A stretch of 61,921 nt of DNA from an archaeon (GTDB lineage Archaea; Nanobdellota; Nanobdellia; Woesearchaeales; UBA9642): assembly GCA_043806035.1 (NCBI GenBank), contig JAZDHK010000019.1, forward strand, positions 1-61,921. Direction: 5' to 3'. Made by a program: the position numbers and the translations under genes. The notes below the pieces were generated by a model that ran no database searches, was not told where the DNA came from, and worked only from the letters and a program-made list of their open reading frames with translations. How positions within the stretch are numbered: position 1 is the first letter of the stretch; each line of letters opens with the position of its first letter. This document shows positions 7,762 to 61,919 of this stretch, piece by piece.

Positions 7762-7937
7762 ATGAGTGCCTTCCTGCACAGCGAGGTTTAAATATCTTTC
7801 TAAAAATTGGCTGTGGGTTCGCAACGGGTTTATGCGTGGAAATAGGCACATTCTCCTCTTGTCACAAAATAGACTGGCAAAGAAAGTCATCACTCAAGAA
7901 AAATAAAGCTTATAAATGAGCGTACATTCTTAGGAGG

Positions 7938-10018: not shown

Positions 10019-10116
10019 TTGCTCGCACGCTTTTTCTTCTCTTTCTTCATGCGCTTGCGTTGCCACTTCCAGCGCATCTGACCCTTTTTCTTCCAGCGTC
10101 GGCTACTTCTCTTCAT
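10015..10116 (-). CDS. rpl41e: Ribosomal protein eL41 (L41e/eS32), not in the ORF track
   Basis: Translates MKRSSRRWKKKGQMRWKWQRKRMKKEKKKRASK*. ATGA overlap with rps7; TATA at ~10141. Confidence 0.88.
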   Translation of the reverse strand: MKRSSRRWKKKGQMRWKWQRKRMKKEKKKRASK

Positions 10117-40127: not shown

Positions 40128-40679
40128 ATGAAAAAACATAAAAAGGGCAAGGTGCAGGTAGCTTTGTGGGTGATTGCAGCACTACTGCTGTCCGCATGCA
40201 GTTCGCAATCGCAACAAATCATAACAAAGGCAAATACGACTGATACCATGAAACTCACCTCGCCCGCATTCAGCGAAGGACAACCCATTCCTGCGAAATT
40301 CACCTGCATGAGTTTTGACGTCAATCCGCAACTCACTGTCTCTGACCATCCTAAAGGGACGAAGAGCTTCGCCTTGCTCATGGACGACCCTGATGCGCCG
40401 ATGGAGACGTGGACGCATTGGATAGTGAAAGACATTCCTGCAGACACGGCGCTCATCCACGAGAATTCTGTTCCTGGAGAGCAGCTCGAGAACAGCTTCG
40501 GCAAAGAGGATTATGGCGGGCCATGCCCTCCCCGAGGTAAGCCTCATCGTTACTTCTTCAAGCTGTACGCGCTCAAAGTGGACAAACTTGATGCGCAGAA
40601 TGCGCGAGAATTTGCCCAGGAAGTTCAGAAGCAGAAGCTCGCAGAAGCCACGCTCATGGGAACCTTTCAAAAAGAATGA
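40128..40679 (+). CDS. YbhB/YbcL (PEBP) family lipoprotein
   Basis: LTSPAF, MDDPDAP..WTHW, YGGPCPP..HRYFFKLYAL; lipobox LLSAC. Confidence 0.93.
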   Translation: MKKHKKGKVQVALWVIAALLLSACSSQSQQIITKANTTDTMKLTSPAFSEGQPIPAKFTCMSFDVNPQLTVSDHPKGTKSFALLMDDPDAPMETWTHWIVKDIPADTALIHENSVPGEQLENSFGKEDYGGPCPPRGKPHRYFFKLYALKVDKLDAQNAREFAQEVQKQKLAEATLMGTFQKE

Positions 40680-41232
40680 TGTGATTGTTCTTTCTAGAAC
40701 ATCCTATGGAAAAAATTCGGAAATCTGGTTCGTCAGGCCTATCGCGGAATATCAGTTCGGTTTGTTCTGCATACAGCTCCTTGAGGTAGTCAGTGATGGG
40801 CGTGAATGATTCAAAACAGGCACGGCTGATATCAACGTAAGGAAGGGCCAATATCGCCATGTTTTTTTGAAGGTCTTCAGAAACGGCACATTCATCTCGT
40901 GTTCCTTCAACCACCGTGCAGTCTATGCTACCGAAGGTAATCTTGCCAGTCTTTATCTCAACCGTTTTTGGGTAGGGAATATTTCTGTAGGGGAAAAGAG
41001 TCAGTTTTCTCGACCACACATCCTTTCGTCGAATGCCATTGCACGTAACGGTTGCTCTTCCTCGTATGTAGAGTTTGTCCTTTTCGCGGAGGAAATACAG
41101 TCTTTTTGCTTGCGCAACGTATTTGACGATGCGTTCGTCCTCAGTCCTGTAACTGGTGCAGCGCAGCCACAATCGCATGCTCAGCCGTTCCGACAACAAT
41201 TCAAGTTGTGATTCCATGTTATCGTTGCTCAT
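40654..41232 (-). CDS. Tandem paralog 5 (B type) of an unknown family
   Basis: RGRAT..W..K...PY..IP.PKT and F.PI..L..LY shared with its neighbours. Confidence 0.7.
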   Translation of the reverse strand: MSNDNMESQLELLSERLSMRLWLRCTSYRTEDERIVKYVAQAKRLYFLREKDKLYIRGRATVTCNGIRRKDVWSRKLTLFPYRNIPYPKTVEIKTGKITFGSIDCTVVEGTRDECAVSEDLQKNMAILALPYVDISRACFESFTPITDYLKELYAEQTELIFRDRPDEPDFRIFSIGCSRKNNHIILFERFP

Positions 41233-41732
41233 GCATTCTCGACCTGTATTTTTCCATCGTTATAATCGGCAAGGATGAGTTTGTCGAGCGGGGAGAAGAC
41301 CTCATCTAGTACTGCACGAGTGACTGATATATTTTTATCCTGTGCTCTCACCCATATGCCTCCTTTATAATGTGCCCAGCAATCAATACCATTAGTTGTT
41401 TTGCCGCGAGAGATGAAATATTCGTGATTGTACGAACCTGACGCGATAGACCACAGCGGCGTATCTTTCACGTTTGTTTTCGGGCAGGGAATGATGGTGA
41501 ACGGATGCCATTGTATCTTGTTTTTCCAAACTCTCTTTGTCTCCCGTTCGTACGCAGTAAGTGTCGCCCTTCCACGGACAGCATCATCTTCCCTATAGAG
41601 TTGGATTGTCTCGCCGACATAAACGACAGATTTCTCGTCCTCCTCGGTCACAAGAATGCTGCGGAATCCCTCCTTGATGGTCTCCACTCTTGATTCGATC
41701 GGGAGCACGTTCTTGAGAATTTTGAGGATCAT
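41229..41732 (-). CDS. Tandem paralog 4 (B type)
   Basis: YER..RVWK..HPF..CP..W..SG..YKGGI..EVFSPLD. Confidence 0.75.
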   Translation of the reverse strand: MILKILKNVLPIESRVETIKEGFRSILVTEEDEKSVVYVGETIQLYREDDAVRGRATLTAYERETKRVWKNKIQWHPFTIIPCPKTNVKDTPLWSIASGSYNHEYFISRGKTTNGIDCWAHYKGGIWVRAQDKNISVTRAVLDEVFSPLDKLILADYNDGKIQVENA

Positions 41733-42202
41733 TTGGTTAATACCTTCGTGTAGATGTCAAGCAGTTTCGCTTCAAGCGGGCCGAAGACAAGCTCGAAGAG
41801 CTCTACAGAAAGGTTGACGCCTGCGTTGGCCGCATCGATATTGATTTTGCTACGATATGACTCTCTGTCTTTGAGGTCATTTTGCATGATTCCTTCTCTG
41901 ACGAGACAGATATACTCAGCGCTGAAGCTTTGCACATTTCCTGCATTGAATGTCCAAATTCTGTTTTGTGATGCGGGAATGATAATCGTCTTATTTCCGC
42001 CAAAACGTTTCTTCTCATACGTTGCGTATTCGTGCTGCATTTCAAGCTTTCTCAAGCAGACTACGCCGTAGATGTTGCAGTCGCTTTGAAAGTGAGCTGC
42101 ATCGATACTGCCCCGATACAGAACATCTTTCTCCTTCCCGGGAATGACGAAGTCATTGCAAAGGTTTTTCATGTCCAGTTTGGTTTCAAAGCCATCTTTC
42201 AT
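41729..42202 (-). CDS. Tandem paralog 3 (A type)
   Basis: LRK.E..EKK.FG..IP..Q..IW.F..G.MQN..SYR..VFGPLE. Confidence 0.75.
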   Translation of the reverse strand: MKDGFETKLDMKNLCNDFVIPGKEKDVLYRGSIDAAHFQSDCNIYGVVCLRKLEMQHEYATYEKKRFGGNKTIIIPASQNRIWTFNAGNVQSFSAEYICLVREGIMQNDLKDRESYRSKINIDAANAGVNLSVELFELVFGPLEAKLLDIYTKVLTK

Positions 42203-42223
42203 GTGTTCTCCTCCTAAGCTGCA

Positions 42224-42766
42224 TTATGTTCTAAGAATCCGCAAGTTGTCCATTAGGTACAGGCCGTTCCACACCACGGGCTTGCCCTCGTATATCCTTA
42301 AAAGCACGTCATCAATCGGTCCGAACACCTCTTCGAAGAGCTGCGGGGAAATGCCTGTGCCTTTTTCTTTTGCATGGAGACGTATGCCTCCTCTGTATTC
42401 GTAGTAGCGATCGTTGCCTATTACGGGTGTACTGTCGTGAATGAATACTGCACTGGGTCCTGATGAGAACGACCACACCTGCTCATCAGTTATCTTTTTT
42501 GTTGGACACGAGAGCATTTTGAAAGGAAACAAGCTGTATCTCGTCTTCCAGAGCAGTCTCTCTGTGCGCTCGTATTTTGCTAATATCGCCTGTCCAAAAA
42601 CAACTCTCGGAAATAGCCTGCTGCTGTGCAGAGAACATGCTCTTCCCTGATAGGCATAATTCTTTCCTTCTTCCTTCACGATAATGGCATTGCTTATCTC
42701 TTCAAGCAGGCCGGGATGCTTTGCATTCGTGACGATGCCCAGTTCAAGCGTTATCGGGTGTTTCAT
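42224..42766 (-). CDS. Tandem paralog 2 (B type)
   Basis: YER..LWK..FPF..CP..W..SG..YRGGI..EVFGPID. Confidence 0.75.
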   Translation of the reverse strand: MKHPITLELGIVTNAKHPGLLEEISNAIIVKEEGKNYAYQGRACSLHSSRLFPRVVFGQAILAKYERTERLLWKTRYSLFPFKMLSCPTKKITDEQVWSFSSGPSAVFIHDSTPVIGNDRYYEYRGGIRLHAKEKGTGISPQLFEEVFGPIDDVLLRIYEGKPVVWNGLYLMDNLRILRT

Positions 42767-43241
42767 GGTCGTCCTTCTTCATGGCAGCATTGTATGTTGC
42801 TACTAATCGTTCTTCGAGCGGATGAAAGACTTGGTCGAACAATGCAGCAGAAATGTTGATGCCCTTGTTGAGAGCAGATATGTTCAGTATACCTCTATAG
42901 GAACCAGGTTCGTAACCATTCTGCATCTTGCCACGCTCTATAATGCGCGTGGTCGACCGGTTTTTGTTATACTCCTCCGTATCAAACACCCAGATAGTCC
43001 GTTGTGCATCGGGAATGTACTTGGTCCTTGTGCCGAAGATGGTTTTCTTTTTCTCAACAAGTGTTTCATGATGCTCGTCTTTGCGGAGCACGACCCTGCC
43101 ATACAGACCATCCTCTTTAAATCGTAGATTTGTCATGGTGCCTGTATAGATGATCTTCTTATCTTTGCCGTCGGCGACCAATGTGTTCGTTAAATCTTCC
43201 AACTGTAATGTGCTTTCCAGCAATACTGAGACTTCTGTCAT
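42744..43241 (-). CDS. Tandem paralog 1 (A type)
   Basis: LRK.E..EKK..FG..IP..Q..IW.F..G.MQN..SYRG..VFHPLE. Confidence 0.75.
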   Translation of the reverse strand: MTEVSVLLESTLQLEDLTNTLVADGKDKKIIYTGTMTNLRFKEDGLYGRVVLRKDEHHETLVEKKKTIFGTRTKYIPDAQRTIWVFDTEEYNKNRSTTRIIERGKMQNGYEPGSYRGILNISALNKGINISAALFDQVFHPLEERLVATYNAAMKKDDHETPDNA

Positions 43242-50318: not shown

Positions 50319-50719
50319 GTACGCCATTCTGCAAGCACTAAACATGACGAATAATGATGATTTGCCATATACGTGTTTCGCTGTAAACTCGGAAAAAAAG
50401 CGGCGAATATGCGTTGTGCGTTTATTCCTGTTAAACTCAATAAAAAAAATCGGCTAAATGTAGAATTGATTTGAGAATTAGAACGTAAATTTCAATACCT
50501 TTTTCTGATTTCTTGCATCAACATAGGATAAAACGAGTTTGAATAATTCCATCAGAATTTAATTCTTCCATTCTTAACTGAAAATCTTCTCTTTTCATTC
50601 TGCCGTAGTTTTGCGGACATCTGTAGTGAGTAATATCTTCCATAACTGCAAGTAATGATTTTCTCTCTGAATCACGAAAATGCGAAATATTTATACACTA
50701 TTCGCAATTACATACACTT

Positions 50720-51586
50720 ATGATGTTATCAATAACTGAGCTAAAGGCTATTTCCGAGCTAGGCAACGGGAAATCAAGTATTACTGAACTGGCCACAACT
50801 CTTAAGATCAGCAAGTCGCAGGTTTACAGGATTGCGGAGAAGCTAAACCGTAAAGGCATTGTGGCTCTTTCAGAAGGAGAGTTGCAGCCCGAGAAGAAGA
50901 CTCACGTAAGCATGTTGCTTAAACTTCTTGCAAAGGCATCAAATCTCGCAAACCCATTATCAGGTACTGGCATGCAAATCTATCAAGCCATTATAGAACC
51001 AAAAACAGTCAAAGAGATAGAAACAGAGACTTGTCTTCATAAATCAACAGTTCTAAAAAAGATCAGACAAGGAAGAAAAATGAGCCTTTTGCTATTGAAA
51101 AATAGAACATGCCAGCTTAACGATAAAATATGGCCAGACGCAATTCAATTCTTTATTGAATTGCAAAAATACGAGTATTCACTAGACCAAAGAATTCCCA
51201 TAAACTCTATAATTTATTCAAAAAACTCAAAAGAGATTATCTTCTCAAACAACCAAGACATTGATGCTCAAAAAACGGCATTCTCAGCATATGAAAACTA
51301 TGGCATAAAACTATTGCTATTAACGAACTATTATTACTTGCCAAAAAAGTCACTAACAAAAAAAGAAGTATTCATTCATTCCATCTATGTCACAGAAAAA
51401 AGCCAAGACATGCGACATTTAATTTATGTTGCCCTGTATTTTGCAAAATACAAAAATGAACTTTCAAAAATAAGGCATCCAATCGTGGAAAACCTAAAAA
51501 AAATATTGTTAGGAGAAAAAATAGCAAAATATCCATCATTAGAAGAAATCAAGGACCGCGCCCAAGTCTATAATGTAGGGTTATAA
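50720..51586 (+). CDS. Winged-HTH protein, putative antitoxin/regulator of the downstream nucleotidyltransferase
   Basis: SITELATTLKISKSQVYRIAEKL HTH; coupled to the NTase gene. Confidence 0.75.
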   Translation: MMLSITELKAISELGNGKSSITELATTLKISKSQVYRIAEKLNRKGIVALSEGELQPEKKTHVSMLLKLLAKASNLANPLSGTGMQIYQAIIEPKTVKEIETETCLHKSTVLKKIRQGRKMSLLLLKNRTCQLNDKIWPDAIQFFIELQKYEYSLDQRIPINSIIYSKNSKEIIFSNNQDIDAQKTAFSAYENYGIKLLLLTNYYYLPKKSLTKKEVFIHSIYVTEKSQDMRHLIYVALYFAKYKNELSKIRHPIVENLKKILLGEKIAKYPSLEEIKDRAQVYNVGL

Positions 51587-51587
51587 G

Positions 51588-52040
51588 ATGATCACATCAT
51601 TTAAAGAAATAGAAAAACTATTGACCGATATCAATACTGCAATGACCACGAAAGCAAGCATGTACATCATTGGTGGCGCTGCACTTCTGAGACGGGCAAT
51701 GAAATCATCGACAAAAGACATAGACGTAGTTGTAAGAACAAAAACTGAATTCTTAGCAATTCAAAACACTCTAATCAAAATAGGATTTACAGCTCACACT
51801 CCCGGAACAGAATACGCTCACTTGAATCTTTCTCAATTATTTCAAAGAGATGATTTTAGGATAGACTTATTTGAGAAAGAAGTTTGTGGTAAATTTTCAT
51901 TAACTGACACAATGACGAAACGTGCAGAAAAAATAATTGAATTAAGCCACCTGAAAATCTTGCTTTGTTCGAACGAAGATATTCTTTTATTTAAGACGAT
52001 GACTGAACGAGAAGGAGATATTCCACGACAAACTGCTTGA
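51588..52040 (+). pseudogene. DUF6036/AbiEii-like nucleotidyltransferase, C-terminally truncated
   Basis: IIGGAAL..STKDID, RIDLF, FK...REGD then an abrupt stop; compare the intact paralog at 55617. Confidence 0.75.
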
Positions 52041-52470
52041 GAATATCGACAACCGAAAGGGATTCAGAAACCATGACATCCACATTCTTGGACAGCCGTT
52101 CAAGCCGACACCTGCGCGTTATGTTCGAGCAGATGTGCAGCTCCTGCTCAAATGGTACGATGAACATAAGGGTGCGCTGCACCCATTCACACTTGCGGTG
52201 CTGTTCCATCACAAATTCGAGAGCACCCATCCATTCAGCGAAGGCAATGGCAGGACGGGCAGAATGCTCATGAATCACATCCTGCTGCTGCACACCTATC
52301 CTCTTGTAGTTGTGAACCGCAAGGACAGGAAAGACTACCTAGATGCCATGAATGCTGCGGACAAAGCCATAAAGAAAAGCCTTATTGCGCTCAGCCCAGA
52401 ATACGAAGAGCTGCTGCACTTCATGATATTGCAGCTCCAGCAGTCCTACTGGGACGTGTTCTTTTTTTGA
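52021..52470 (+). pseudogene. Fic-domain gene lacking its 5' part
   Basis: The frame opens at FHDKLLENID..GFR and contains HPFSEGNGRTGR; no start precedes it. Confidence 0.8.
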
Positions 52471-52477
52471 GGAGATT

Positions 52478-52574
52478 TCCGCCGACGTCATAAACGAACA
52501 CGTCAGAAAGCAGACCTTTCCGAGCATCATCAGGAACCACAGTTCCTGAGAGGTCACAACACAGAGCGTCTTTC
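52478..52574 (+). repeat. Island repeat, partial copy G
   Basis: TCCGCCGAC..., hairpin TCAGGAAC-CACA-GTTCCTGA, and AGGTCACAACACAGAGCGTCTTTC (matches the end of copy A). Confidence 0.65.
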
Positions 52575-52586
52575 TCGGAGGACATC

Positions 52587-53087
52587 TTACTTTTTGAGCA
52601 TTTCTTCTGCTTTGTTGATGAATAGAATGGATTCTTCTCGGAGTTTTCTCACGCGTTCGGTCCTGAAGAGTGTGCCTGTGGCGTAGCTTGCACTTCTTCT
52701 CTGTTCTTTAAGCGTCGCGTAGAATTCAGCATCCTCTTTGGTGAGATGAAGTTGTTCAATAAGTTCCGCTTCTTCCTTACTGATTCCGTATTCTTTAATG
52801 AGCAGGAGCAATGTTGCGTTGTGATCTTTTGAGATGTAGCCTTTATTGGCGAGAAGGGCAAGGCTTGCGTGATAGACTGCATAGTAGAGTCCAACAATTG
52901 TCCAGTCGTTGAACTCCTCATCGGTGATGTTCTTTGCGACGAATCGAAGGTTGTGCTTTGCCTTATCCAGGTGTGCCTTATCGAGAGTGGATGCAATGGC
53001 GCTTTGCCGTATTGCTTTCTCCTTTTTGAATCTGGCTATTTCCTTTTCAAGTAGTGTTTTGTTGTTGTACAATTGGTCAATGTTCAA
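52587..53087 (-). CDS. HEPN domain protein (MNT-HEPN toxin)
   Basis: KAKHNL, W..VGLYYAVYH, SKDH, RRSASY; TTG start after GAGGTG. Confidence 0.85.
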   Translation of the reverse strand: MNIDQLYNNKTLLEKEIARFKKEKAIRQSAIASTLDKAHLDKAKHNLRFVAKNITDEEFNDWTIVGLYYAVYHASLALLANKGYISKDHNATLLLLIKEYGISKEEAELIEQLHLTKEDAEFYATLKEQRRSASYATGTLFRTERVRKLREESILFINKAEEMLKK

Positions 53088-53688
53088 TGAGCACCTCGTA
53101 GTATTGTTGCTGATTGTATATTGGGAATCCTGTGTCTCTGGCTTGGATGAGCAGGTGGTCTTTATCTTCACGAAGCTGTTGCGTGGTTGTGATTGCTGTG
53201 CTGATACGATGGAGGGATATGGCTTGCGCGTCCTGTCTTGCATTTTCTATTTTTGTCAGCATCTCTTGTTCGTAGTGTTTCTGAAGCTGACGGGTGCTGA
53301 AGCTATGCAAGACGATGAGAATGTCAATATCGCTTTTTTTCTCTTCAGTTTTTCTTGCAGCGGAGCCGAAGAGAAGCACAGTAACTACACTTCTTGGGAT
53401 GTTTTTGATGAATTCAATAAGTGGCAGACGGATATTTCTATGAAGGTTATCGAATCGGAGGATGTCAAGCTGCGCGAAACGAACATGTGTGGCAGGTGAT
53501 GCTGGCAGTATATAGAAGGTGTTTGCTTTCGTCTCTTCTTTTTTTATGAGTCCATTCTTTTCGAGTTTTTCGAGTGCGTTCTGCAGGGAGCTATTCGATA
53601 GCTTGGTTGCGTCCTTGATCTGGCTGAAGTAAAGCTTTGCCTGCCGAGATTCGTGGAATGCGCTAAAAACTTTATCTTCTGCCCTCAT
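53077..53688 (-). CDS. wHTH plus minimal nucleotidyltransferase (MNT antitoxin)
   Basis: LFGSAAR..SDIDILIV; N-terminal HTH. Confidence 0.88.
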   Translation of the reverse strand: MRAEDKVFSAFHESRQAKLYFSQIKDATKLSNSSLQNALEKLEKNGLIKKEETKANTFYILPASPATHVRFAQLDILRFDNLHRNIRLPLIEFIKNIPRSVVTVLLFGSAARKTEEKKSDIDILIVLHSFSTRQLQKHYEQEMLTKIENARQDAQAISLHRISTAITTTQQLREDKDHLLIQARDTGFPIYNQQQYYEVLIEH

Positions 53689-53764
53689 GGAATCAGAAAA
53701 GCGAGCGCCATTTATATACTTTGCCAAAATATGGCATTAACTTGCCAATAAATGGCACATTCAA

Positions 53765-53800
53765 GACGATGTCGGAAACGGTCAGGTCATACTCCAGAGC
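53765..53800 (+). repeat. Island repeat, short partial copy H
   Basis: CGATGTCGGAAACGGTCAGGTCA..CAGAGC vs CGATGACGGATACGGACAGGTCA in copy C. Confidence 0.55.
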
Positions 53801-53801
53801 A

Positions 53802-53924
53802 CTACTGTGGGTAGATGCCCATAGAGATGAGTTCTTGTTGCTTTCCAGGCGGGAGCAAATGCCAGCCGTAAAGCAGGATGGCCTTGAACGTGTCTACATT
53901 AAGTGTTATTGTGTGCTCGCTCAT
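53802..53924 (-). CDS. 40-aa small ORF between two repeats
   Basis: MSEHTITLNVDTFKAILLYGWHLLPPGKQQELISMGIYPQ* fills the inter-repeat interval. Confidence 0.45.
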   Translation of the reverse strand: MSEHTITLNVDTFKAILLYGWHLLPPGKQQELISMGIYPQ

Positions 53925-53947
53925 ATGAGAAGTAGCGTCTTAAGTCT

Positions 53948-54133
53948 GATAAAAATCTTGTCATTCCCCCGGGTCTAATGCTCTGCCAAAAATGGTAATG
54001 CTCGTCTAGAGATTTGCACACGAGAATAATACGAAAACTTGCGTTATAGGCTTTGAGAACGCAGAATATAGAAAGAGATACGATGCTCCCGCCGACTGCG
54101 ATAACGGACAGGTCACATCACAGAGCGTCTTTC
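53948..54133 (+). repeat. Island repeat, copy A
   Basis: GATAAAAATC.TGTCATTCCC..GGT.TAATGCTCTGC.AAAAATGGTAATGCTC shared with copy C; GATGCTCCCGCCGA..ACGGACAGGTCAC. Confidence 0.8.
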
Positions 54134-54201
54134 AGGCATGACGCCCATAGCAACCAGTCCTATTGATTGCACATGATTCAGCGACTGTGTCGAGTTGTTT
54201 C

Positions 54202-54705
54202 TTAAGAGCCGCTCGAGCCAGTGTTGCAGTCACGTGTAATTGAGCAATCTTCAATATAGTAAGCACTACAACAACAACCATGGCCGCCGCAGCCGGTGCA
54301 ACCAGTACGAATGGCATAAGTTCTCCCTGGAGGTGTACAATGATATATGCAATATTTACCCAAACAGGGTCTTGACTTCGGGGCAGGATCATCATTTTGA
54401 CCATAGTCTAGTTCAGAAATAGATTCTAAGGTTTTTGCATCTTTTGCAATGAATATCGCGTCTGCACGTTCGTAACTATTCTTGGCGTTTTTCTTGTATA
54501 TCTCTATCAGTTCGTCATTTACTCTTATCGTGATTTCATCCGTTCCAGGAACATACACGTTTCCATCATAGGCTCCATTGAGTGTTATTCCTTCAGCAGT
54601 ATCATCATTGACATAGACTGCCGCCCCCTTACCAACGTTCTGGTTGCATCCCGAGAGAACAAATAAGCATAGGGCAACCCCCACGAAAAGAAACAAAATT
54701 TTCAT
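54202..54705 (-). CDS. Putative lipoprotein with Cys-rich C-terminal domain
   Basis: VLSGC lipobox-like; Cys-dense tail including CTGC and CCC; GGAGGTG RBS. Confidence 0.7.
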   Translation of the reverse strand: MKILFLFVGVALCLFVLSGCNQNVGKGAAVYVNDDTAEGITLNGAYDGNVYVPGTDEITIRVNDELIEIYKKNAKNSYERADAIFIAKDAKTLESISELDYGQNDDPAPKSRPCLGKYCIYHCTPPGRTYAIRTGCTGCGGHGCCCSAYYIEDCSITRDCNTGSSGS

Positions 54706-54787
54706 AACACACCTCCAGATAAAGTGTCATCGTTTTTATTGTCTTTGTATCCCTGAATATTTAAATGTTGTTTTTTATTTTCGTGCG

Positions 54788-55003
54788 CAGAGCACTGCAC
54801 CTGTCCGGTCAAATGCTCTACGTGGTTTCCCGACCGGGTTTTGGGTGAAACCGCAGAATTTGGGCGACAGAAGCCGCGTAGAGCTATCGCTACGGGGTTG
54901 GATGCTCCCGCAGATGTCGGGACCTCTCAAGAACAATGGTTCTTGACGATGATCAGAAATTCGCAAATTTCTGACACGACAGGTCACTAACCAGGATCAG
55001 TCT
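54788..55003 (+). repeat. Island repeat, copy B (with two inserted hairpins)
   Basis: CAGAGCACTGCACC-TGTCC-GGTCAAATGCTCT..GTAGAGCTATCGCTAC..GATGCTCCCG..GACAGGTCAC..CCAGGATCAGTC. Confidence 0.88.
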
Positions 55004-55004
55004 T

Positions 55005-55038
55005 AGGTGACTACAAATACTGCAAAATGTAGTCACCT
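55005..55038. promoter_or_regulatory. Perfect 11-bp inverted repeat (operator or hairpin)
   Basis: AGGTGACTACA-N12-TGTAGTCACCT upstream of a wHTH gene. Confidence 0.45.
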
Positions 55039-55140
55039 GCTCACGTCTGGTGATTCACTCTGCGTTCATATATGCTTGCGACAGGGAAAATAAGTATATT
55101 TAGATACTCAAAAAATAGCAATATTTATATATCAGTTAAT

Positions 55141-55620
55141 ATGGATAATACTATGAATATCCTTCCGGGCAAATATACGGTGGAGCGCTTTGCGCAAGAG
55201 CATAAGCTTGGTAGGCAGTCTGCCATCAATGCTCTTTCCCGGCTGAAAAAACAAGGATTTGTGGAAGTCAGTGGCGGAGGTTCACAGAAAAGGATATACG
55301 CAGTTTCTGCGCTGCCAAGAAAACAGCAGAACGGCTTTTATGCGCTGGTCAACAAGTTCAGTCCCGAGAAACTCCAGCCCAGATTTGAACATTATGTGCA
55401 TGGCAAGTACACGGTAGAGCAAGCCATTATTGATGGATTGCGAATAGGAGATGCACGAACGAAACAAGCAACGATGCATCTTTTCAACCACGTTACCAAC
55501 TGGAAGCGGCTCATGGATGCTGCAAGAAAAAATGGTATGGCTCATGACGTGATAGTACTCTATCAACAGGCAAGAAAAACGATGAAATGCCGGCGCATGC
55601 CGCAGAGGTATCTCGTATGA
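55141..55620 (+). CDS. Winged-HTH protein, putative antitoxin
   Basis: RQSAINALSRLKKQGFVEVSGGG..RIY; ATGA overlap with the NTase gene. Confidence 0.75.
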   Translation: MDNTMNILPGKYTVERFAQEHKLGRQSAINALSRLKKQGFVEVSGGGSQKRIYAVSALPRKQQNGFYALVNKFSPEKLQPRFEHYVHGKYTVEQAIIDGLRIGDARTKQATMHLFNHVTNWKRLMDAARKNGMAHDVIVLYQQARKTMKCRRMPQRYLV

Positions 55621-56270
55621 TAAACACGCAAGATCAGGAGGAATTGTTCAGGCTTATCGCTGATTATCTTGAAAAAGACGTAGAATGCCTGGCCATAGGT
55701 GGCACGGCCATGATGTTCCACGGCTACAAGACGACAACAAAGGATATTGATCTTGTGTTCAAAAGCGAACAGGACAGAGGAATTTTTATCAAGGCATTGC
55801 TGCAACTTGGATATACAGAACGGTCAATTAGGAGCGTTTATGACGAAAAACGGGCAACAGACAAGAACAAGCCGAAGATGTATTCGAGAGGCGAAGAACG
55901 ATTCGATCTCTTCGTCATGAACGTATTCGGAGTCGATGTTCCATTCGAGAACATCGTGCAGAGGCATGATTTCATAGGAAAAAAAGAGCTTATAGTTCTC
56001 ACCCTTTCGAAGGAATTGCTCATTCTGCTCAAAAGCGTCACCAACCGAGAAAAAGATTACGAGGACATAGAGACCATAGTCAAGATTGAAAAGAACATAG
56101 ACTGGAAATTAATAGTCAACGAAGCCTTGAGAAACAGACAGAACAAACAATGGATGCTCTACGATCTTGAAGAAAAGCTTCAAAAATTAAAGAAGATAAC
56201 ATTCATCAAAAAAGAAATATTTGACGCTATCTACAAATCTGAAAGTGACTACGAAAAGAAGAAGATGTAG
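55617..56270 (+). CDS. DUF6036/AbiEii-like nucleotidyltransferase
   Basis: AIGGTAMM..TTKDIDLV, RFDLF, LK...REKDYEDI. Confidence 0.85.
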   Translation: MINTQDQEELFRLIADYLEKDVECLAIGGTAMMFHGYKTTTKDIDLVFKSEQDRGIFIKALLQLGYTERSIRSVYDEKRATDKNKPKMYSRGEERFDLFVMNVFGVDVPFENIVQRHDFIGKKELIVLTLSKELLILLKSVTNREKDYEDIETIVKIEKNIDWKLIVNEALRNRQNKQWMLYDLEEKLQKLKKITFIKKEIFDAIYKSESDYEKKKM

Positions 56271-56324
56271 ACCCTAATCCCCTTACATTTCAAAATCTTG
56301 CTTGTAAGGGTAATTCATGTCGAA

Positions 56325-56368
56325 CGCCGATGTCGGGACCCGTCGGGTCATCCGCCAGGATCAGTCTT
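56325..56368 (+). repeat. Island repeat, partial copy F (right part only)
   Basis: CGCCGATGTCGGGACC-CGTCG-GGTCA..CCAGGATCAGTC; abuts the HEPN stop at 56369. Confidence 0.8.
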
Positions 56369-56875
56369 TCAGAGCTGTTCTAGTATTTCCTCTGCCCTGT
56401 CTACGAACCTGCGGGAGTCTGTTTTGGTTTTTTGTGCGAGTTCTCTGGTGACTCTTTTTGTGACGGAATATTGGGCGATTTCTCGGCTGTCCTTGGCGTC
56501 TCTCAGAGTCTCAATATCCTCTTTTTTCATCTTGATGTTCTTGAAGTTCTGGAAGTGTGTCTTCTCCAGGAGTCCGTCCTTGACGAATAGCTCTTCGAGG
56601 GCGGCTGCCGTTGCAGTATGGGATTTGCTTTTGTAGCCCGCTTTTGCCACTAGACTTAAGGCTGCCATGTACATTGCATAATAGGCGACCACTATAACCC
56701 ATTCGTCGTTGCTGTGGTCTTTGGGTATGGCAAGGAGGTCTTTGTGCTTCTCTGCTTCGTTGAGTATTTCCATCGTGACAAGATTCGATTTTGCTTTTCT
56801 GAGATAGGGTTCGGCAAGATTCTTCACGGTGGGGTCTTTTGCTAGCTGTTTTAGCTGGATGAATCGTTCAATCAT
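56369..56875 (-). CDS. HEPN domain protein
   Basis: KAKSNL, EWVIVVAYYAMY, KSHTAT, REIAQY. Confidence 0.87.
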   Translation of the reverse strand: MIERFIQLKQLAKDPTVKNLAEPYLRKAKSNLVTMEILNEAEKHKDLLAIPKDHSNDEWVIVVAYYAMYMAALSLVAKAGYKSKSHTATAAALEELFVKDGLLEKTHFQNFKNIKMKKEDIETLRDAKDSREIAQYSVTKRVTRELAQKTKTDSRRFVDRAEEILEQL

Positions 56876-57470
56876 TGATATACACCTCCTTGAAGAATCG
56901 GTCAACACCATCGAGGATTACTCCATATGTGAGGATGTCATTCCAGAACTGCGGATTATCCTTCTTCATGTTCATAAAGTCAGACGTTCGTACGAGTACT
57001 GGCTGGATGTTCATGGCATACTTGGTCTTGTATACTTGCAAGGCTGAGCGTACGTTTTTCTTGTTCGTGACGAGCAAAAGATCAATGTCGCTTTCTGCCG
57101 TCTGTGTGCCTTTGGCGTAGGAACCAAAGAGGATTGCTGGACCCTCCGGATTAACATCATTGAGGCACTCGTACAATCTCTTATAGCGCAAGGCATGTTT
57201 TTGCCTGAAATCCAGTCTTTTCTTGTTCATATGATAGATGAACACTTGGTACTTGAGATCCCGATCATTGACGAACTCATAGACGTTGGTTTTGCCGACT
57301 TTTTTCTCAATGAGGCATTTTTTGTTCACCAGCCCTTTCAGTATCCTGAAGGTGGTTTCGTGGGAGAATCCTGATTTCTTCTCAATCTCTTTGGAGGCCA
57401 AATCCTTCAAGTGCGGGAAGAAGCACTCCAGGAGTTCTAGTTCATTCTGCATCAATAGTTGGTTCATCAA
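56868..57470 (-). CDS. wHTH plus MNT antitoxin
   Basis: LFGSYAKG...ESDIDLLLV; N-terminal HTH. Confidence 0.9.
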   Translation of the reverse strand: MMNQLLMQNELELLECFFPHLKDLASKEIEKKSGFSHETTFRILKGLVNKKCLIEKKVGKTNVYEFVNDRDLKYQVFIYHMNKKRLDFRQKHALRYKRLYECLNDVNPEGPAILFGSYAKGTQTAESDIDLLLVTNKKNVRSALQVYKTKYAMNIQPVLVRTSDFMNMKKDNPQFWNDILTYGVILDGVDRFFKEVYIND

Positions 57471-57656
57471 CTACATAGTTGGCATAACAACTATATAAAT
57501 GTTTCGACTAATTTCTCGGAAAGATGTCAAGTTCTATCAATTCTTGCTGTTTGGCGGGAGGCAGAAGATGCCAACTATGCAAGAGGACAGCCTTAAAGTC
57601 TTCCAATGGTGGCGTGATTGTATGTTCGTTCATGCCAAGTTTATCGTCACGGGTGG

Positions 57657-57828
57657 GATAAAAATCGTGTCATTCCCAGGGTATAATGCTCTGCGAAAAA
57701 TGGTAATGCTCTGCCAGAGTATCTGACCGGGTTTTTGAGAAATTGCAGAATTTGGCCGACAGAAGCCGTGTAGAGCTATCGCTACCAGGTATAATGCTCC
57801 CGCCGATGACGGATACGGACAGGTCACT
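57657..57828 (+). repeat. Island repeat, copy C
   Basis: GCAGAATTTGG.CGACAGAAGCCG.GTAGAGCTATCGCTACCAGGTATAATGCTCCCGCCGATGACGGATACGGACAGGTCAC. Confidence 0.88.
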
Positions 57829-57904
57829 ATTGTTCTTGGAGAAGACGCGAGGCCGCGCAGTTGAGGACGCAAAATTTATAAGCTTGATTTCTCTAAAATG
57901 AGTT

Positions 57905-58639
57905 GTGGCTGAAGACAAGGTTTCACCTAAGAAAAATTGCATGATTCTTAGTCTCAGTTCTGTCGGTTCATTCATTCTGGGCATGTTCTTCATCTTTATT
58001 TTTCCGTTTGAACTCCTCAAACAATCTCCATCAATTCAACAAGTTTTCTGGGTACTGGCAATAGTACTGTTCTTTATTTCCATAACTCTGGCAATATCGG
58101 CCATCAGCTCTTGTAAAAAAAACTATCCTGGTTATCGTTGGCTGATAAACGGTTGGTTTCTTTCCAGCTGCATTGTCATTCTTCTGATTACTGCACTGTT
58201 CTTTCTCTACTTTATGCCTGGTATGAAACCGCAAGGAACTCCTTTGGATAAAACGCTCTTTGCCGCACCTATTCAGAGCACAGACATGGCCACAATCACC
58301 TGCGGTTCTGCAACTAGTGGAGGCAACATAGCCATACCGCTTATAAATCAGAGAAACAGTAGCATCATCCTTGATGCTGTGAGCTTGACTTCCTCAAGTG
58401 AGAACGCGTGCACAGGGAGGGATTCCCAACTGCGCCTTGATAAAGGAGAATGGGCTCCGCTCAATACGGTAGTGATTCCATCGGGGAGTGATTTTGTTAT
58501 GCGATTTTTTTGCAGACCTGGCTTTCCGATAGATGAACAAAGAATACATGCCGACATAAACATCACGTATCATACTCTTCAATCTCCTCAGGAGCATCAA
58601 GTCAGAGGAATTGTCTCTATGAAAGCTGCATGTACCTAG
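57905..58639 (+). CDS. Hypothetical 3-TM protein with extracellular beta domain
   Basis: Three hydrophobic segments followed by a Cys-containing beta-rich domain. Confidence 0.7.
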   Translation: MAEDKVSPKKNCMILSLSSVGSFILGMFFIFIFPFELLKQSPSIQQVFWVLAIVLFFISITLAISAISSCKKNYPGYRWLINGWFLSSCIVILLITALFFLYFMPGMKPQGTPLDKTLFAAPIQSTDMATITCGSATSGGNIAIPLINQRNSSIILDAVSLTSSSENACTGRDSQLRLDKGEWAPLNTVVIPSGSDFVMRFFCRPGFPIDEQRIHADINITYHTLQSPQEHQVRGIVSMKAACT

Positions 58640-58693
58640 CGAGTGCAAAAAATTACGACACCTGCTCGTACATAAAAAAAGGTTGTTTTGTTT

Positions 58694-58893
58694 CAGAGCA
58701 TTGTACCCGTCGGGTCAGAATATCTGGGATGATTTTTCCTGATTTTCGTGAAACGGCAGTTTTCGGGCACGAGAAGGCGTGTAGAGCTATCGCTACCGGG
58801 TATGATGCTCCCGCCGATGTCCGGACCCGACGGGTCACAACCCATGATCAGTCAGGGTGCCAAACGTATCACAAAAAACATACGATGCAATAC
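58694..58893 (+). repeat. Island repeat, copy D
   Basis: Colinear with copy E over ~200 bp; terminal IR ACCCGTCGGGTC (58705-16) / GACCCGACGGGT (58824-35). Confidence 0.92.
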
Positions 58894-59000
58894 AATGTCA
58901 TAGAAATAAAACACCATGTTTGTGCCTGAGATGTTCATAGTTAGCAGCTTAGAATAGAACCGCGCATAAATGTTATAAATGAGCCCCACAAATAGGCAGT

Positions 59001-60107
59001 ATGGCACAATTCATGAAGGGGAAACGATTAAGTGTGTTGTTCTTCAACGAGGCAGTTAAACCGCTACTTCACACATCATTTCCCAATCTTAAGTACTCTG
59101 TAGGCTTAATAGGCCCGGGTTCTGATGTCCTAGATTTTGATACGAAACGATCCATTGATCACGATTGGGGTCCACGTGTGGTGTTATTTTTACCAGAAAA
59201 AGAGTTTCATACTCAGAAGGAAAAAATATCGAGGCATTTAAGCAATAATCTGCCGCATACATTTAGAGGTTTTACAACAAATTTTGGCCTTCCTGACGAG
59301 AAGGGTGTGAAAGTTTCTAGGAAAATCACTTCAGGACCTATTAATCACGGAGTAAAAATATACACTATGCGCTCATTTTTCAGAGAATATTTAGGACTAG
59401 ACTTGAGGAAGGAAATTTCTACTATTGATTGGCTTACATTCTCAGAACAGAAACTATTGAGCATACGAAAATCTGAAATTTTTCATGATGACTTAGGCTT
59501 GAGAAAAGTAGTCAACGAATTGCATTATTATCCCGAAGATGTGTGGTTATATCTCTTAGCATCGCAATGGTCGAGGATTGCGCAAGAAGAGTCATTCATG
59601 GGTCGCTGCGGAGAATTGGGCGATGAACTCGGATCTATGATTGTCGCATCCCGTCTATGCAAAGATATAATGAAACTCTGTTACCTGATGGAAAAAGAAT
59701 ATTCTCCCTACATGAAATGGTTCGGAACTGGTTTTTCAAAACTAGCATCATCAAAGAAATTGACGCCATTACTAAGAAAAACGTTGGAGTCAAAAAATTG
59801 GAAACTTCGTGAAAAATACCTCTCACAAATGTATGAATATGCTGGCAGACGACATAACGAGCTAGGAATAACTAGAACCATCAAGCCAAAAGTCAGCAAT
59901 TTTCACGACCGTCCTTTTCTCGTTATTCACGGAGAACTCTTTGCTCAAGAATTGAGAAAACGTATTAAAAATCCTGAACTTAGTTCATTGCCCTTGATAG
60001 GATCAATTAACCAATTCTCAGATTCAACTGATGTGCTGGAAAATGACACTACAAACTTCAAATTAGCCTACAAGCCAAAGCAAGCAGCGTACAGAACGCC
60101 GCAATAG
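59001..60107 (+). CDS. DUF4037-domain (nucleotidyltransferase-like) protein
   Basis: GLIGPGSDVLDFD...S.DHDWGPR, YYPEDVW, PYMKW.G motifs. Confidence 0.85.
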   Translation: MAQFMKGKRLSVLFFNEAVKPLLHTSFPNLKYSVGLIGPGSDVLDFDTKRSIDHDWGPRVVLFLPEKEFHTQKEKISRHLSNNLPHTFRGFTTNFGLPDEKGVKVSRKITSGPINHGVKIYTMRSFFREYLGLDLRKEISTIDWLTFSEQKLLSIRKSEIFHDDLGLRKVVNELHYYPEDVWLYLLASQWSRIAQEESFMGRCGELGDELGSMIVASRLCKDIMKLCYLMEKEYSPYMKWFGTGFSKLASSKKLTPLLRKTLESKNWKLREKYLSQMYEYAGRRHNELGITRTIKPKVSNFHDRPFLVIHGELFAQELRKRIKNPELSSLPLIGSINQFSDSTDVLENDTTNFKLAYKPKQAAYRTPQ

Positions 60108-60201
60108 AAAATCGCCTAAAAAGTTTTGAGCCACTGAACATTTGCGGTGCACGTTTTTAATTTGCAAGAGCAAGATTATCATCATAGGTCTGTTACATAT
60201 C

Positions 60202-60429
60202 TTATCATTTCCTCAGGTATGATTCTCTGCCAGAGTACTGTACCCGTCGGGTCAAATGCTCTGCGATTGTTATTTCCAGATTTTCGTGAAACCGCAGATT
60301 TCGGGCACGAGAAGCCGTGTAGAGCTATCGCTACAGGGTATGATGCTCCCGCCGATGACCAGACCCGACGGGTCAGAGTCCAGGATCAGTCCTGCGCAAA
60401 TGTATCACACAAGACATACAATGCAATAC
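60202..60429 (+). repeat. Island repeat, copy E
   Basis: Terminal IR ACCCGTCGGGTC (60242-53) / GACCCGACGGGT (60362-73); conserved core GTGTAGAGCTATCGCTAC.GGGTATGATGCTCCCGCCGATG. Confidence 0.92.
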
Positions 60430-60550
60430 TGTGTTGGGAACTAGACACGATTGCAGCTGCTGGACTGACTGATACGACTGAATGCTTCTTTGGCGAGGGT
60501 AACAAGGACTAGGGTATCAACGTAGGTGATTACTGAAGCTACAATAACGT

Positions 60551-61561
60551 TTAATAACGTAAGTACATCATCCCTAAGGAGATGCCTGACCCTCCGCCGG
60601 ATAGGAGCATGCTGTCACCCCTTTGGACTCTATGCGTTGAAATAGCCTCGTCGATTCCCAGCGGAATAGACACTGAAAGCATATTTCCGAAGGTGCGGGT
60701 AAGATCGAGAAGTTTATCATTGGGAAAATTCATTCTTCGTTTCAGAAGATCGATAAAACTAGGACTCACTTGGTGGGGGATTATCGCTTTCACTTCTTCA
60801 ACTATCTCTTTCAAAGCAATATGATGGTCTTTCAAAGCACGAGCAAAAAAGCCTTTGCATTCCTCGAAGACCACTCTGCCCATAGCAGTCCCGTGTAATT
60901 CATAGACGAAATTATCATGAGTTTCATTGCTATACTCCATTGCGGTCAGTTTATTCCCTCCTCCTCTAATCTCTGAGAGATGAGCACCTCTCGAGAACGT
61001 TTCAATATGGGATAGGTAAATTCCACTGCTTCCCGTTTCGTCTTTTCTAAGCACCAGCGCTGCAGCGCCATCACCGAACAATGGTGCACTTTTTATGTCC
61101 TTGCGGTTTATGCCAACAGACGTAATGTCTGATGAGCACACCAGTGCAGTGGTGTAGCGTCCATGTTCTAGCATGTAGGAAATAGTGTCAAGTCCCTGAA
61201 GAAAACTCATGCATGAAGAATTGATATCAAAACAAGGAATGTGCGTCTTTTGTAGACCTAATTGTTCTGACAACAAACATCCGCCTGTCGGTATTGGTTG
61301 CTGATTGACGCCGTTCGTAGATACAATGACATCAAGATCTTCCGGATGAAGTCCTGCTCGCTCTAACGCTTGACGCGAAGCGAGTTCAGCCATTTCAGAA
61401 GACGTTTCATCCTCAACCCAATATCTAGTGCTCACACCAGTTGATTGTAAACACGTACCGTTTGGTACATCTAGTATGCGATCCAACTCGTCCGCTTCTA
61501 TTTTTCGCTTAGGTATGTATCTTCCCGTTCCTACAATTTTAATATGCCTGTCGAACTTCAT
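60551..61561 (-). CDS. 3-oxoacyl-ACP synthase III (FabH-like thiolase fold)
   Basis: FDINSSCMSF (Cys), LFGDGAAA, PHQ (His), FGN (Asn), GSG.S.G. Confidence 0.9.
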   Translation of the reverse strand: MKFDRHIKIVGTGRYIPKRKIEADELDRILDVPNGTCLQSTGVSTRYWVEDETSSEMAELASRQALERAGLHPEDLDVIVSTNGVNQQPIPTGGCLLSEQLGLQKTHIPCFDINSSCMSFLQGLDTISYMLEHGRYTTALVCSSDITSVGINRKDIKSAPLFGDGAAALVLRKDETGSSGIYLSHIETFSRGAHLSEIRGGGNKLTAMEYSNETHDNFVYELHGTAMGRVVFEECKGFFARALKDHHIALKEIVEEVKAIIPHQVSPSFIDLLKRRMNFPNDKLLDLTRTFGNMLSVSIPLGIDEAISTHRVQRGDSMLLSGGGSGISLGMMYLRY

Positions 61562-61655: not shown

Positions 61656-61919
61656 CTACGGTGACTTTGCTACAGCTATGAAATTCACTCGAGGGTAGCG
61701 TTTGCGAAAACCAGGATGTTTTTCAAACATCCTGCGCGCACTACGCGATTTGAGCAGGATCTCAGCGTCGATAATTGAGTATTTCTTTGGCACGTTCACA
61801 AGGAAGTGCACGTGCGTTCCTGCAAAGCCGAACGTGCCGAATTCGAAGCCTTGCGTTTCGAATTCTCGAAACGCTGCCGTGCACGTGTCGATGTGCGATT
61901 GTTTGCCAAAACAGTTGTA
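61656..61919 (-). mobile_element. tnpA: IS200/IS605-family Y1 (HUH) transposase, 3'-truncated and cut by the window edge
   Basis: YNCF..THVHFLVNVPKKYS..LKSRSARRMF..P.FRKRYPR then a premature stop; lacks FWS and the catalytic Tyr helix. Confidence 0.8.

Follow-up and report, generated by a model that had tools for sequence, protein, structure and literature searches.

Direct repeats identical to tRNA sequence reportedly flank foreign DNA in archaeal chromosomes, a pattern that She and colleagues are said to have presented in 2001 as "gene capture in archaeal chromosomes". Elements of the SSV and pNOB8 types are whole viruses or plasmids with an integrase gene, which is partitioned in the SSV type. 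Further systems come close to the locus described here, as far as the cited accounts set them out. Islands of the ICESt1/ICESt3 type in streptococci include cis-mobilizable elements (CIMEs), which have att sites on both sides, are devoid of genes for integration and transfer, stand in tandem, and are expected to be moved by the integrase of another element (PMC5704250); the tycheposons of Prochlorococcus form tRNA-seeded islands and bring their own tyrosine or serine recombinase and replication genes (10.1101/2020.12.28.424599); and arrays of archaeal elements arise by re-use of one site (PMC6563490). Here, we describe an array of small gene modules separated by copies of one repeat family in a DPANN archaeon of the lineage UBA9642 (Nanobdellota; Woesearchaeales). 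The stretch analyzed, called the window below, is the entire contig C19 (61,921 nucleotides; JAZDHK010000019.1) of a genome of 1,502,269 bases in 42 contigs (G000; GCA_043806035.1). Judging from sequence, we lean towards reading the repeats as attP-like junctions of small integrase-less modules that would have integrated serially at the 3′ end of a tRNA-Glu gene, serviced in trans.

To delimit the repeat family, a covariance model (R1) was built from the part common to all copies (alignment A3). In the whole genome, R1 has nine matches: eight on the plus strand of the window, starting at 52469 (site G), 53753 (H), 54079 (A), 54898 (B), 56314 (F), 57790 (C), 58801 (D), and 60339 (E), and a ninth, site X40a, on the minus strand of the 3,584-base contig C40 (3290–3347). 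No further R1 match was found in the window or the rest of the genome, and the matches of a blastn search with the eight copies and of an nhmmer profile of the four long copies were likewise confined to the array and C40. A preliminary description of the window had reported eight co-oriented copies at 52.4–60.4 kb and none elsewhere in the window; the repeat search, blastn, nhmmer, and R1 bear out the former, with coordinates that agree within tens of bases, and the last three bear out the latter. According to the gene map, each intergenic gap longer than about 70 nt across 52.4–60.5 kb contains one copy and gene pairs are never interrupted by a copy, as that description had also stated. The proximity of stop codons to the repeats, which it had pointed out, is seen at site F, which ends at 56366 just before a HEPN stop codon (56369–56371), and at site H, whose tail includes the stop codon of a 40-aa open reading frame (ORF; 53802–53804). 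Rfam contains no family that matches the window at gathering scores, and none that matches the array at E-values up to 1.

Each site is built around a core of 11–13 nt, followed by a conserved right arm of about 45 nt that ends in a motif like CAGGATCAGTC; full copies also have about 110 nt of left arm before the core. The full copies B, D, E, and X40a share one order: a 33-nt palindrome, a highly conserved center, the core TGCTCCCGCCG, a right arm with the palindrome GACCYGNCRGGTC, and the end motif CAGGATCAGTC. The most conserved part of the site is its center, not its ends, and the ends of the copies are not sharply delimited. The long copies B, C, D, and E measure about 190–220 nt, with left arms that are 64–87% alike; the short copies G, H, and F, of about 58–115 nt, consist of a partial core and the right arm, and start at an identical point inside the core. 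Sites A and C have a 5′ part in common that differs from that of the full copies. In site A, this part is followed by a middle section (54032–54094, about 63 nt), the core, and the right arm; the middle section and the flank lying just downstream of tRNA-Glu(UUC) on C40 are 87% alike, and the tail of site G is 83% alike to the tail of site A. The similarities of the two arms are partly uncoupled, with values of 0.80 (left) and 0.53 (right) between B and E, and of 0.66 (left) and 0.79 (right) between E and X40a. Half-sites of a dyad, CRGGT/ACCYG, lie about 12–18 nt to each side of one center at most cassette junctions and at the tRNA junctions of three genomes; they are absent from site C and partial in B. 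The palindrome ACCCGNCGGGT has five matches in the genome, all inside the array. Another palindrome, AGGTGACTACA...TGTAGTCACCT, follows site B (55003–55040) and also brackets the Fic module of a relative (G016, locus L040, 8383–8425 and 9303–9345); it could serve as an operator or mark module ends of a second kind.

When folded as single strands, sites D, E, and B are more stable than their shuffles (z of −2.4 to −4.0) and A and C are not (z of −0.15 to +0.8). In X40a and B, local hairpins take the place of the long-range stem seen in D and E. Covariation in the right-arm hairpin is weak, with one pair altered on both sides, and RNAalifold on the four long copies finds 5 of 29 pairs compensatory, with a covariation term of only −0.25 kcal/mol. 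We also searched for the boxes of integron attC sites, using the consensus given in the preliminary description (an RYYYAAC...GTTRRRY pair within 47–160 nt): none of the eight copies has such a pair on either strand, in agreement with what had been claimed.

Read as its reverse complement, the core of the repeat matches the 3′ end of tRNA-Glu(UUC), a gene that is intact on C40, and every site is a direct repeat of that tRNA end. The right arm aligns with the T-arm region of the tRNA as a diverged copy. The 11-mer core TGCTCCCGCCG has seven exact matches in the genome, namely sites A, C, D, E, and X40a, the tRNA-Glu 3′ end itself, and one unrelated place; in site B, the core has one mismatch. 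The preliminary description had read the repeats as resembling recombination sites rather than a dispersed element, which their confinement to the island and the tRNA contig supports, but it had missed the identity of the core. On C40, tRNA-Glu(UUC) is followed by two further modules, a P-loop kinase-like gene and a PIN and AbrB/MazE-type pair, and then by the full site X40a. This is the same arrangement as that of the window, with the tRNA at the end toward which all window copies point. The tRNA (1642–1766; Rfam, 45.6 bits) is a paralog of tRNA-Glu(CUC) on contig C13, and its anticodon loop reads CUUUCGC, i.e., anticodon UUC. It is one of two intron-bearing tRNA genes that Rfam identifies on C40 (771–867 and 1642–1766, with introns of about 24 and 55 nt). 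ARAGORN found neither with default settings and, with introns allowed, called them Ser(UGA) and Lys(UUU), with loops read as UAU and UUC; considering the paralogy to tRNA-Glu(CUC) and the sequence of the anticodon loop, we regard the label tRNA-Lys(UUU) as a mis-call. The spacing of tRNA-Lys(CUU) and tRNA-Glu(CUC) was also observed to vary, from 3 nt in this genome (C13, 4178–4405) to about 9 kb in relatives (loci L035, L036, L039, L043, L044, and L045); a further insertion hotspot may lie downstream of tRNA-Lys.

The scan with the covariance model was extended to relatives, with tRNA-Glu loci taken from 12 places in the family. As the preliminary description had suggested such a scan, its outcome can be set beside it: apart from the nine sites of G000, R1 matches occur in three further genomes of the family (G015, G016, and G013; 4 of 19 in all), and in none of 150 other genomes of the order. 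In G015, sites lie at 4857–4914 and 7716–7773 of locus L044, where a 62-nt direct repeat (98%; 7671–7732 and 9926–9987) includes the tRNA end; in G016, they lie at 8331–8387 and 9365–9421 of L040, with the adjoining tRNA at 10000–10077; and in G013 a single site, a scar, is found 53 nt from the tRNA. In all three, the core is the 3′ end of the genome's own tRNA-Glu, and it is the right arm that is conserved from genome to genome. G000, G015, G016, and G013 all carry direct repeats whose sequence is that of the 3′ part of a resident tRNA, and an intact tRNA stands at one end on C40 and in the three relatives. The modules between sites in G015 and G016 measure 0.6–2.9 kb and lie directly downstream of tRNA-Glu. 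Their cargo comprises a cupin; Fic with a 120-aa ORF; a methyltransferase, a GT4 glycosyltransferase, and a membrane protein; a flavodoxin-like protein; and Fic. The Fic proteins of the three genomes are 30–41% identical, and therefore give no sign of recent cassette exchange. We conclude that this is a genuine family of sites, restricted to the lineage and linked to tRNA-Glu; direct repeats of a tRNA 3′ end that follow the sequence of the host's own tRNA are the hallmark of site-specific recombination at the tRNA in question. Separately, a degenerate site (R1 E-value of 0.007) was seen at about 1500–1560 of L119 (G015, contig C11), with no tRNA within 1.5 kb; decayed sites therefore occur away from tRNA-Glu too, as in the window.

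Wider searches added no further carriers. Copy D, compared by BLAST to 40 relatives, gave one weak 26-nt match and nothing else, and no close strain is present in the collections. A pattern from the G000-specific center of the repeat had no match in genome, metagenome, or viral contigs, and a strict arm pattern had none in 400 genomes of the order (including 7 of the family, G015 not among them). Arm-pattern scans of genome and of metagenome contigs gave 29 loci each, of which 27, judged by GC and context, are high-GC chance matches and the other two overlap on the G015 contig. An empty-site or synteny comparison with 11 loci of relatives was hampered by divergence, with one flanking gene shared with one locus.

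Under the reading that we favor, a recombinase encoded elsewhere or by a visiting element would join a circular module, made up of cargo and a single site, by recombination either to the tRNA end or to a site already present in the array. Each insertion would push older modules away from the tRNA, leaving the order left arm, core, right arm between neighbors, so that internal junctions would be attP-like hybrids between neighboring elements, as tandem insertions produce. The short copies would be junctions of the distal-end type (foreign flank, core, and right arm) or deletion scars. The cargo consists of one or two genes under promoters of their own, facing either way, and is mostly toxin–antitoxin or defense-like. 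The common truncation point of G, H, and F, the uncoupled arms, and the dyad half-sites fit a crossover at the core, as hints rather than proof. As for the enzyme, a six-frame search of G000 for tyrosine recombinases (PF00589) gave seven places, with no gene or remnant on C19 or C40, and no integrase or recombinase gene was found among the array ORFs of G015 and G016; the array modules thus carry no integrase of their own. Because no array contains a recombinase gene or a remnant of one, an enzyme acting in trans is the natural reading, and here the preliminary description had anticipated our view. From these features, we infer both the mode of insertion and the action in trans.

This array can now be compared with the systems introduced above. 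As the streptococcal account presents CIMEs (PMC5704250), the modules resemble them in being flanked by att sites with the target gene's end, in lacking integration and transfer genes, and in standing in tandem. They differ in size, with modules of 0.2–1.5 kb and one or two genes against multi-kilobase decayed islands; in the run of at least nine sites in a DPANN host; and in that no co-resident autonomous element or cognate integrase was found. With tycheposon islands, to the extent that the source describes them (10.1101/2020.12.28.424599), the array shares the tRNA seed, serial integration that pushes older material distally, partial tRNA copies or remnants, and adaptive or defensive cargo, whereas its modules lack recombinase and replication genes and its junctions keep long conserved arms flanking the tRNA-derived core. 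Integrons and clusters of attC sites lacking integron integrases (CALINs), as outlined in PMC9668308, have in common with it small unrelated cargo, one site per module, enrichment in toxin–antitoxin genes, and no neighboring integrase; unlike them, the array has no R″/R′ boxes (0/8) and no IntI over the cut-off, its sites have a conserved tRNA 3′-end center, its cargo is bidirectional with its own upstream regions, and its anchor is a tRNA gene rather than attI. Finally, it shares tRNA-identical direct repeats with the SSV- and pNOB8-type elements but has no integrase half or pseudogene. No description of tRNA-anchored arrays of one-gene modules in DPANN archaea was found in literature titles and abstracts, which does not prove that none exists. 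The feature is best classed as tRNA-targeted integrative modules at cassette size, with lineage-restricted sites: the kind of system is already known, and the variant is new. To call it a distinct system, as had been done, is too strong, since serial integration of att-flanked, integrase-less modules at tRNA genes is covered by the accounts cited above (PMC5704250, 10.1101/2020.12.28.424599, PMC6563490), as far as these go.

The sites and modules are listed in Table 1. Cargo GC ranges from 0.35 to 0.50 (0.35–0.45 for most modules), compared to 0.48 for the window and genome, so that the compositional heterogeneity noted earlier is confirmed. Most gene labels of the preliminary description are recovered by Pfam; those of the "lipoprotein", the "3-TM protein" (three transmembrane segments), the 182-aa protein, and the 40-aa ORF have no Pfam match. 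Both DUF6036 genes are preceded by a probable DNA-binding protein, the first with winged helix-turn-helix (wHTH) matches and the second without a Pfam match; the two proteins are not detectably alike (E-value of 0.16). The DUF6036 nucleotidyltransferase (NTase) of the leftmost module has 150 aa versus 227 aa in its paralog, with 29% identity; this gene and the wHTH gene before it have a GC of 0.35. The Fic fragment next to them aligns to residues 212–300 of the 306-aa Fic of G016.

Table 1. Repeat sites and gene modules of the array, with the genes at its right edge (window coordinates).
Feature	Position	Strand	Description	Evidence
Leftmost module	50720..52470	+	Decayed; wHTH 50720–51586; shortened DUF6036 NTase 51588–52040; Fic C-terminal fragment 52135–52470	Pfam
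Site G	52469..52583	+	Short; core and right arm with hairpin-bearing insert; starts at the stop codon of the Fic fragment	R1 52469–52526, E 2.9e-7
HEPN and MNT pair	52587..53727	-	HEPN 52587–53243; wHTH-MNT NTase 53077–53727; ~30% identical to second pair	Pfam
Site H	53753..53810	+	Short, degenerate; core remnant and right arm	R1 E 1.5e-6; alignment A3
40-aa ORF	53802..53924	-	63% identical to paralog 57508–57633	No Pfam match
Site A	53948..54142	+	Mosaic	R1 54079–54136, E 1.7e-10
Cys-rich secreted/lipoprotein-like protein	54202..54705	-	167 aa; single-gene module	ORF; no Pfam family
Site B	54786..55040	+	Long; ~60 nt inserted in right arm, then palindrome 55003–55040	R1 54898–55002, E 2.1e-4
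182-aa protein and DUF6036 pair	55072..56270	+	182-aa protein 55072–55620; DUF6036 NTase 55587–56270	Pfam; 182-aa protein: no Pfam match
Site F	56314..56371	+	Short; core from ..CGCCG onward and right arm; abuts HEPN stop codon	R1 E 1.6e-10
HEPN, MNT, and small ORF	56369..57633	-	HEPN 56369–56911; MNT 56868–57470; 41-aa ORF 57508–57633	Pfam
Site C	57657..57850	+	Long; A-type 5′ part	R1 57790–57840, E 7.8e-10
Membrane protein	57905..58639	+	244 aa; single-gene module	ORF; no Pfam family
Site D	58692..58898	+	Full; 33-nt palindrome, conserved center, tRNA-Glu 3′-end core, right-arm palindrome, terminal motif	R1 E 1.4e-13
DUF4037 protein	59001..60107	+	368 aa; single-gene module between full sites D and E; GC 0.39	Pfam E 1.6e-30
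Site E	60229..60434	+	Full; 86% alike to D over ~200 nt	R1 E 2.1e-14
FabH-like ketoacyl synthase III	60551..61561	-	Beyond the last site	Pfam
IS200-type Y1 transposase gene	61656..61919	-	Runs off the contig	Pfam Y1_Tnp

The small ORFs of 40–41 aa adjoin the A- and C-type sites in the window. They belong to a real family of small proteins that extends beyond it: a 64-aa ORF in a relative (G008, locus L152, 1441–1635) is 47% identical, lies outside any array, and adjoins cupin-like and Lrp-like genes. A role of the 40-aa ORF as an excision factor was considered and rejected, as this homolog is not near any site. Both small ORFs of the window contain, on the plus strand, an inverted near-exact copy of the tRNA-end core (53847–53857 and 57553–57563), where the minus strand encodes "LLPP". 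At the left edge of the island, 50319–50719 is gene-poor and has a GC of 0.33; GC drops there from 0.48. Elsewhere in the window, the minus strand of 40654–43241 holds five back-to-back ORFs of 157–192 aa with overlapping or abutting ends, which look like paralogs by eye.

A number of observations count against serial integration in trans as we propose it, and the enzyme accounts for several of them. No cognate recombinase for the site was found. When six tyrosine recombinases of G000 were scored against the NCBIfam cut-offs for IntI (TIGR02249, NF011946) and XerA, none passed, so that the earlier statement that no IntI is present holds; the best score on the IntI model was that of a protein on contig C20 (181 bits, against a cut-off of 265), which scores higher as XerA. 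In G013, PF00589 has no match at all. An autonomous element with the site was sought in viral contigs with two arm patterns, with no matches, and none with a cognate integrase at the same site was found in G000 or in viral, genome, or metagenome contigs, a result that is weak evidence given the incomplete data. Other points concern place and context. The window array is not beside a tRNA in the assembly: its ends lead to non-tRNA DNA, the right one overlapping contig C35 by 141 nt and continuing to an EndoIII-like gene, and the ends of C40 overlap no other contig (nor do those of C39 and C24). The tie of the window array to tRNA-Glu(UUC) is therefore one of sequence identity, and its physical link to C40 is presumed from that identity. 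The copies are 60–87% alike overall, and the site-bearing relatives number only three and are too distant for synteny. The array is also partly decayed, with three truncated sites and two gene fragments (the Fic fragment and the shortened DUF6036 gene), and may no longer be active. Lastly, it contains two blocks of common order: a DNA-binding-type protein with DUF6036, a short site, HEPN with MNT, a small ORF, and a long site. Considering that these share one architecture, G and F, both short sites, may lie within a larger unit rather than at cassette borders.

Reads from the population did not capture movement either. The public data consist of DNA runs only, as Logan contigs of one biofilm study at about 3–5x, in which no piece spans the array, and at this depth no excised circles or empty sites were seen. 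Loose contig ends occur at 52463, 55110, 50429, and 50465, each in a single contig. Two of these, 55110 and 52463 (15–20 nt left of the core of G), lie off the core, which again does not favor a crossover there. The other two coincide with the left edge of the island, where a short piece around 50442 has a depth about tenfold the local one and may therefore be shared with other DNA in the sample. One contig joins 57563, the end of the inverted core motif, to 57794, the left edge of the core of C; this joint could be a coincidence, a library artefact, or a real rearrangement.

One lead to an enzyme was obtained. A serine recombinase of 266 aa with Resolvase and Recombinase domains is encoded on contig C28 (locus L134, 1180–1980, minus strand), overlapping the end of a 473-aa ORF without a known family. 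It is present as a single copy in all four site-bearing genomes and in 13 of 19 family genomes, compared to only 5 of 80 other genomes of the order when these were queried with the protein. In each site-bearing genome, the sole resolvase-type gene lies outside the arrays; the type also occurs in family genomes without sites, and never beside an array. Sequence identity to its counterparts is out of step with kinship (63% in another family versus 45% within the same family). The widely spaced dyad half-sites around the core would suit a serine recombinase better than a tyrosine recombinase. We treat this enrichment as a lead only, and the protein as a candidate. The preliminary description had proposed looking for a recombinase that co-occurs with the repeat, and the serine recombinase does so in 4/4 site-bearing genomes, with a presence in 13/19 family genomes, whereas Y1_Tnp, in 1/4, does not. 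Among the tyrosine recombinases, we noticed that the genes on C24 (2692–4017) and C30 (784–1770) have their starts within, or immediately behind, the 3′ ends of tRNA-Gln(CUG) and tRNA-Trp(CCA); on these very short or end-of-contig pieces, they look like ordinary integrated elements.

Among the other explanations, we take most seriously, though we hold it to be unlikely, that the array is a relic of tandem integrations, in which full integrase-bearing proviruses or plasmids entered at tRNA-Glu and later deletions left att scars and a few genes, without cassettes ever having existed. Re-use of a single integration site is known to build archaeal arrays (PMC6563490), and tRNA-seeded islands with scattered partial tRNAs and remnants are known too (10.1101/2020.12.28.424599), at least in outline from these sources; the decay described above (Fic fragment, short DUF6036 gene, and three truncated sites) would fit such a history, and integrases do adjoin other tRNAs of G000 (tRNA-Gln on C24 and tRNA-Trp on C30). 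However, a relic requires total loss of the integrase in about a dozen modules of three genomes, yet with junctions of 160–200 nt kept intact at a spacing of 0.2–1.5 kb. The six-frame search left no integrase remnant on C19 or C40, there is none in the G015 and G016 arrays, and between the two full sites D and E stands one intact gene, encoding the DUF4037 protein. Since such loss with the junctions kept seems less likely, we favor integrase-less modules serviced in trans over the relic.

A bolder form of this favored reading would be a dedicated, integron-like cassette platform of this Woesearchaeota family, in which free circles of one or two genes each carry, as attachment site, an approximately 200-nt mimic of the 3′ half of tRNA-Glu, and a chromosomal recombinase acting in trans, for which the C28 serine recombinase is the candidate, inserts them serially at tRNA-Glu and can shuffle them. 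We regard this as speculative, and as somewhat less probable than the relic.

Much less probable is a segmental duplication of a toxin–antitoxin block without mobility, whose intergenic element would be kept for a function in cis, as a small RNA, an operator, or a processing signal that mimics a tRNA end. The common gene order of the two blocks would follow from it, the palindrome after site B recurs around the Fic gene of G016 and could be an operator, and no movement was seen in the 3–5x public contigs. Yet between the blocks, HEPN/MNT and DUF6036 paralogs are only about 30% identical (the small ORF, 63%), against sites that are 60–87% alike; the orientation of the site is not fixed relative to neighboring genes; no Rfam family matches; and covariation in the arm hairpin is weak, with the single pair changed on both sides. 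Moreover, in three genomes one and the same site splits unrelated cargo; wherever the assembly includes the tRNA, this is downstream of tRNA-Glu.

We consider it very improbable that the repeats are a non-autonomous transposon with hairpin ends, similar to a miniature inverted-repeat transposable element (MITE) or a repetitive extragenic palindromic (REP) element, spread by the IS200-type Y1 (HUH) transposase at the edge of the island. Near each end, full copies do carry a palindrome, and on one strand the stem (ACCCGNCGGGT) is the same; a Y1_Tnp gene lies at 61656–61919. However, the genome scan with R1 contradicts the genome-wide scatter that the preliminary description had named as grounds for abandoning its idea: all nine copies lie in two short stretches, with none in other intergenic regions of 1.5 Mb. 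As the palindrome is found in the array (5/5) and nowhere outside it, no transposase gene elsewhere has it; the other Y1_Tnp match of the genome is on contig C8. The suggestion that the adjacent HUH/Y1 protein is the enzyme fares no better, since its gene continues into C35 and Y1_Tnp is over the cut-off in only one of the four site-bearing genomes; the gene is probably an unrelated transposase gene at the edge of the island. A core that tracks each genome's own tRNA-Glu would also be left unexplained.

We give hardly any credence to an integron-type array, or CALIN, whose repeats would be attC sites that an IntI encoded elsewhere recombines in folded single-stranded form: both integrons and attC clusters that lack an integrase, commonly with toxin–antitoxin cargo, are reported from Archaea including Nanoarchaeota/DPANN in the account at hand (PMC9668308), D, E, and B fold better than shuffles, and the C20 tyrosine recombinase reaches 181 bits on the integron-integrase model, but the R″/R′ boxes are missing from all eight copies, conservation peaks at the center of the site, A and C fold no better than shuffles, the long-range stem of D and E is lost in X40a and B, cargo genes stand in both orientations, the C20 protein falls below the cut-off and scores higher as XerA, and nothing would lead an attC site to copy the end of a tRNA.

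The genomes of DPANN archaea are tiny, and few routes by which they gain genes are recognized. If integration in trans at tRNA-Glu is true, tRNA-anchored one-gene modules, with a complete attachment site apiece but no integrase, would show how DPANN cells stock and exchange toxin–antitoxin and defense genes. They would also represent an independent, tRNA-based route to integron-style cassettes, and the cassette site and the tRNA-Glu end would together provide a substrate for finding the recombinase. Even as no more than a decayed relic, the array would clearly exemplify, in an archaeon, how a tRNA-seeded island grows.

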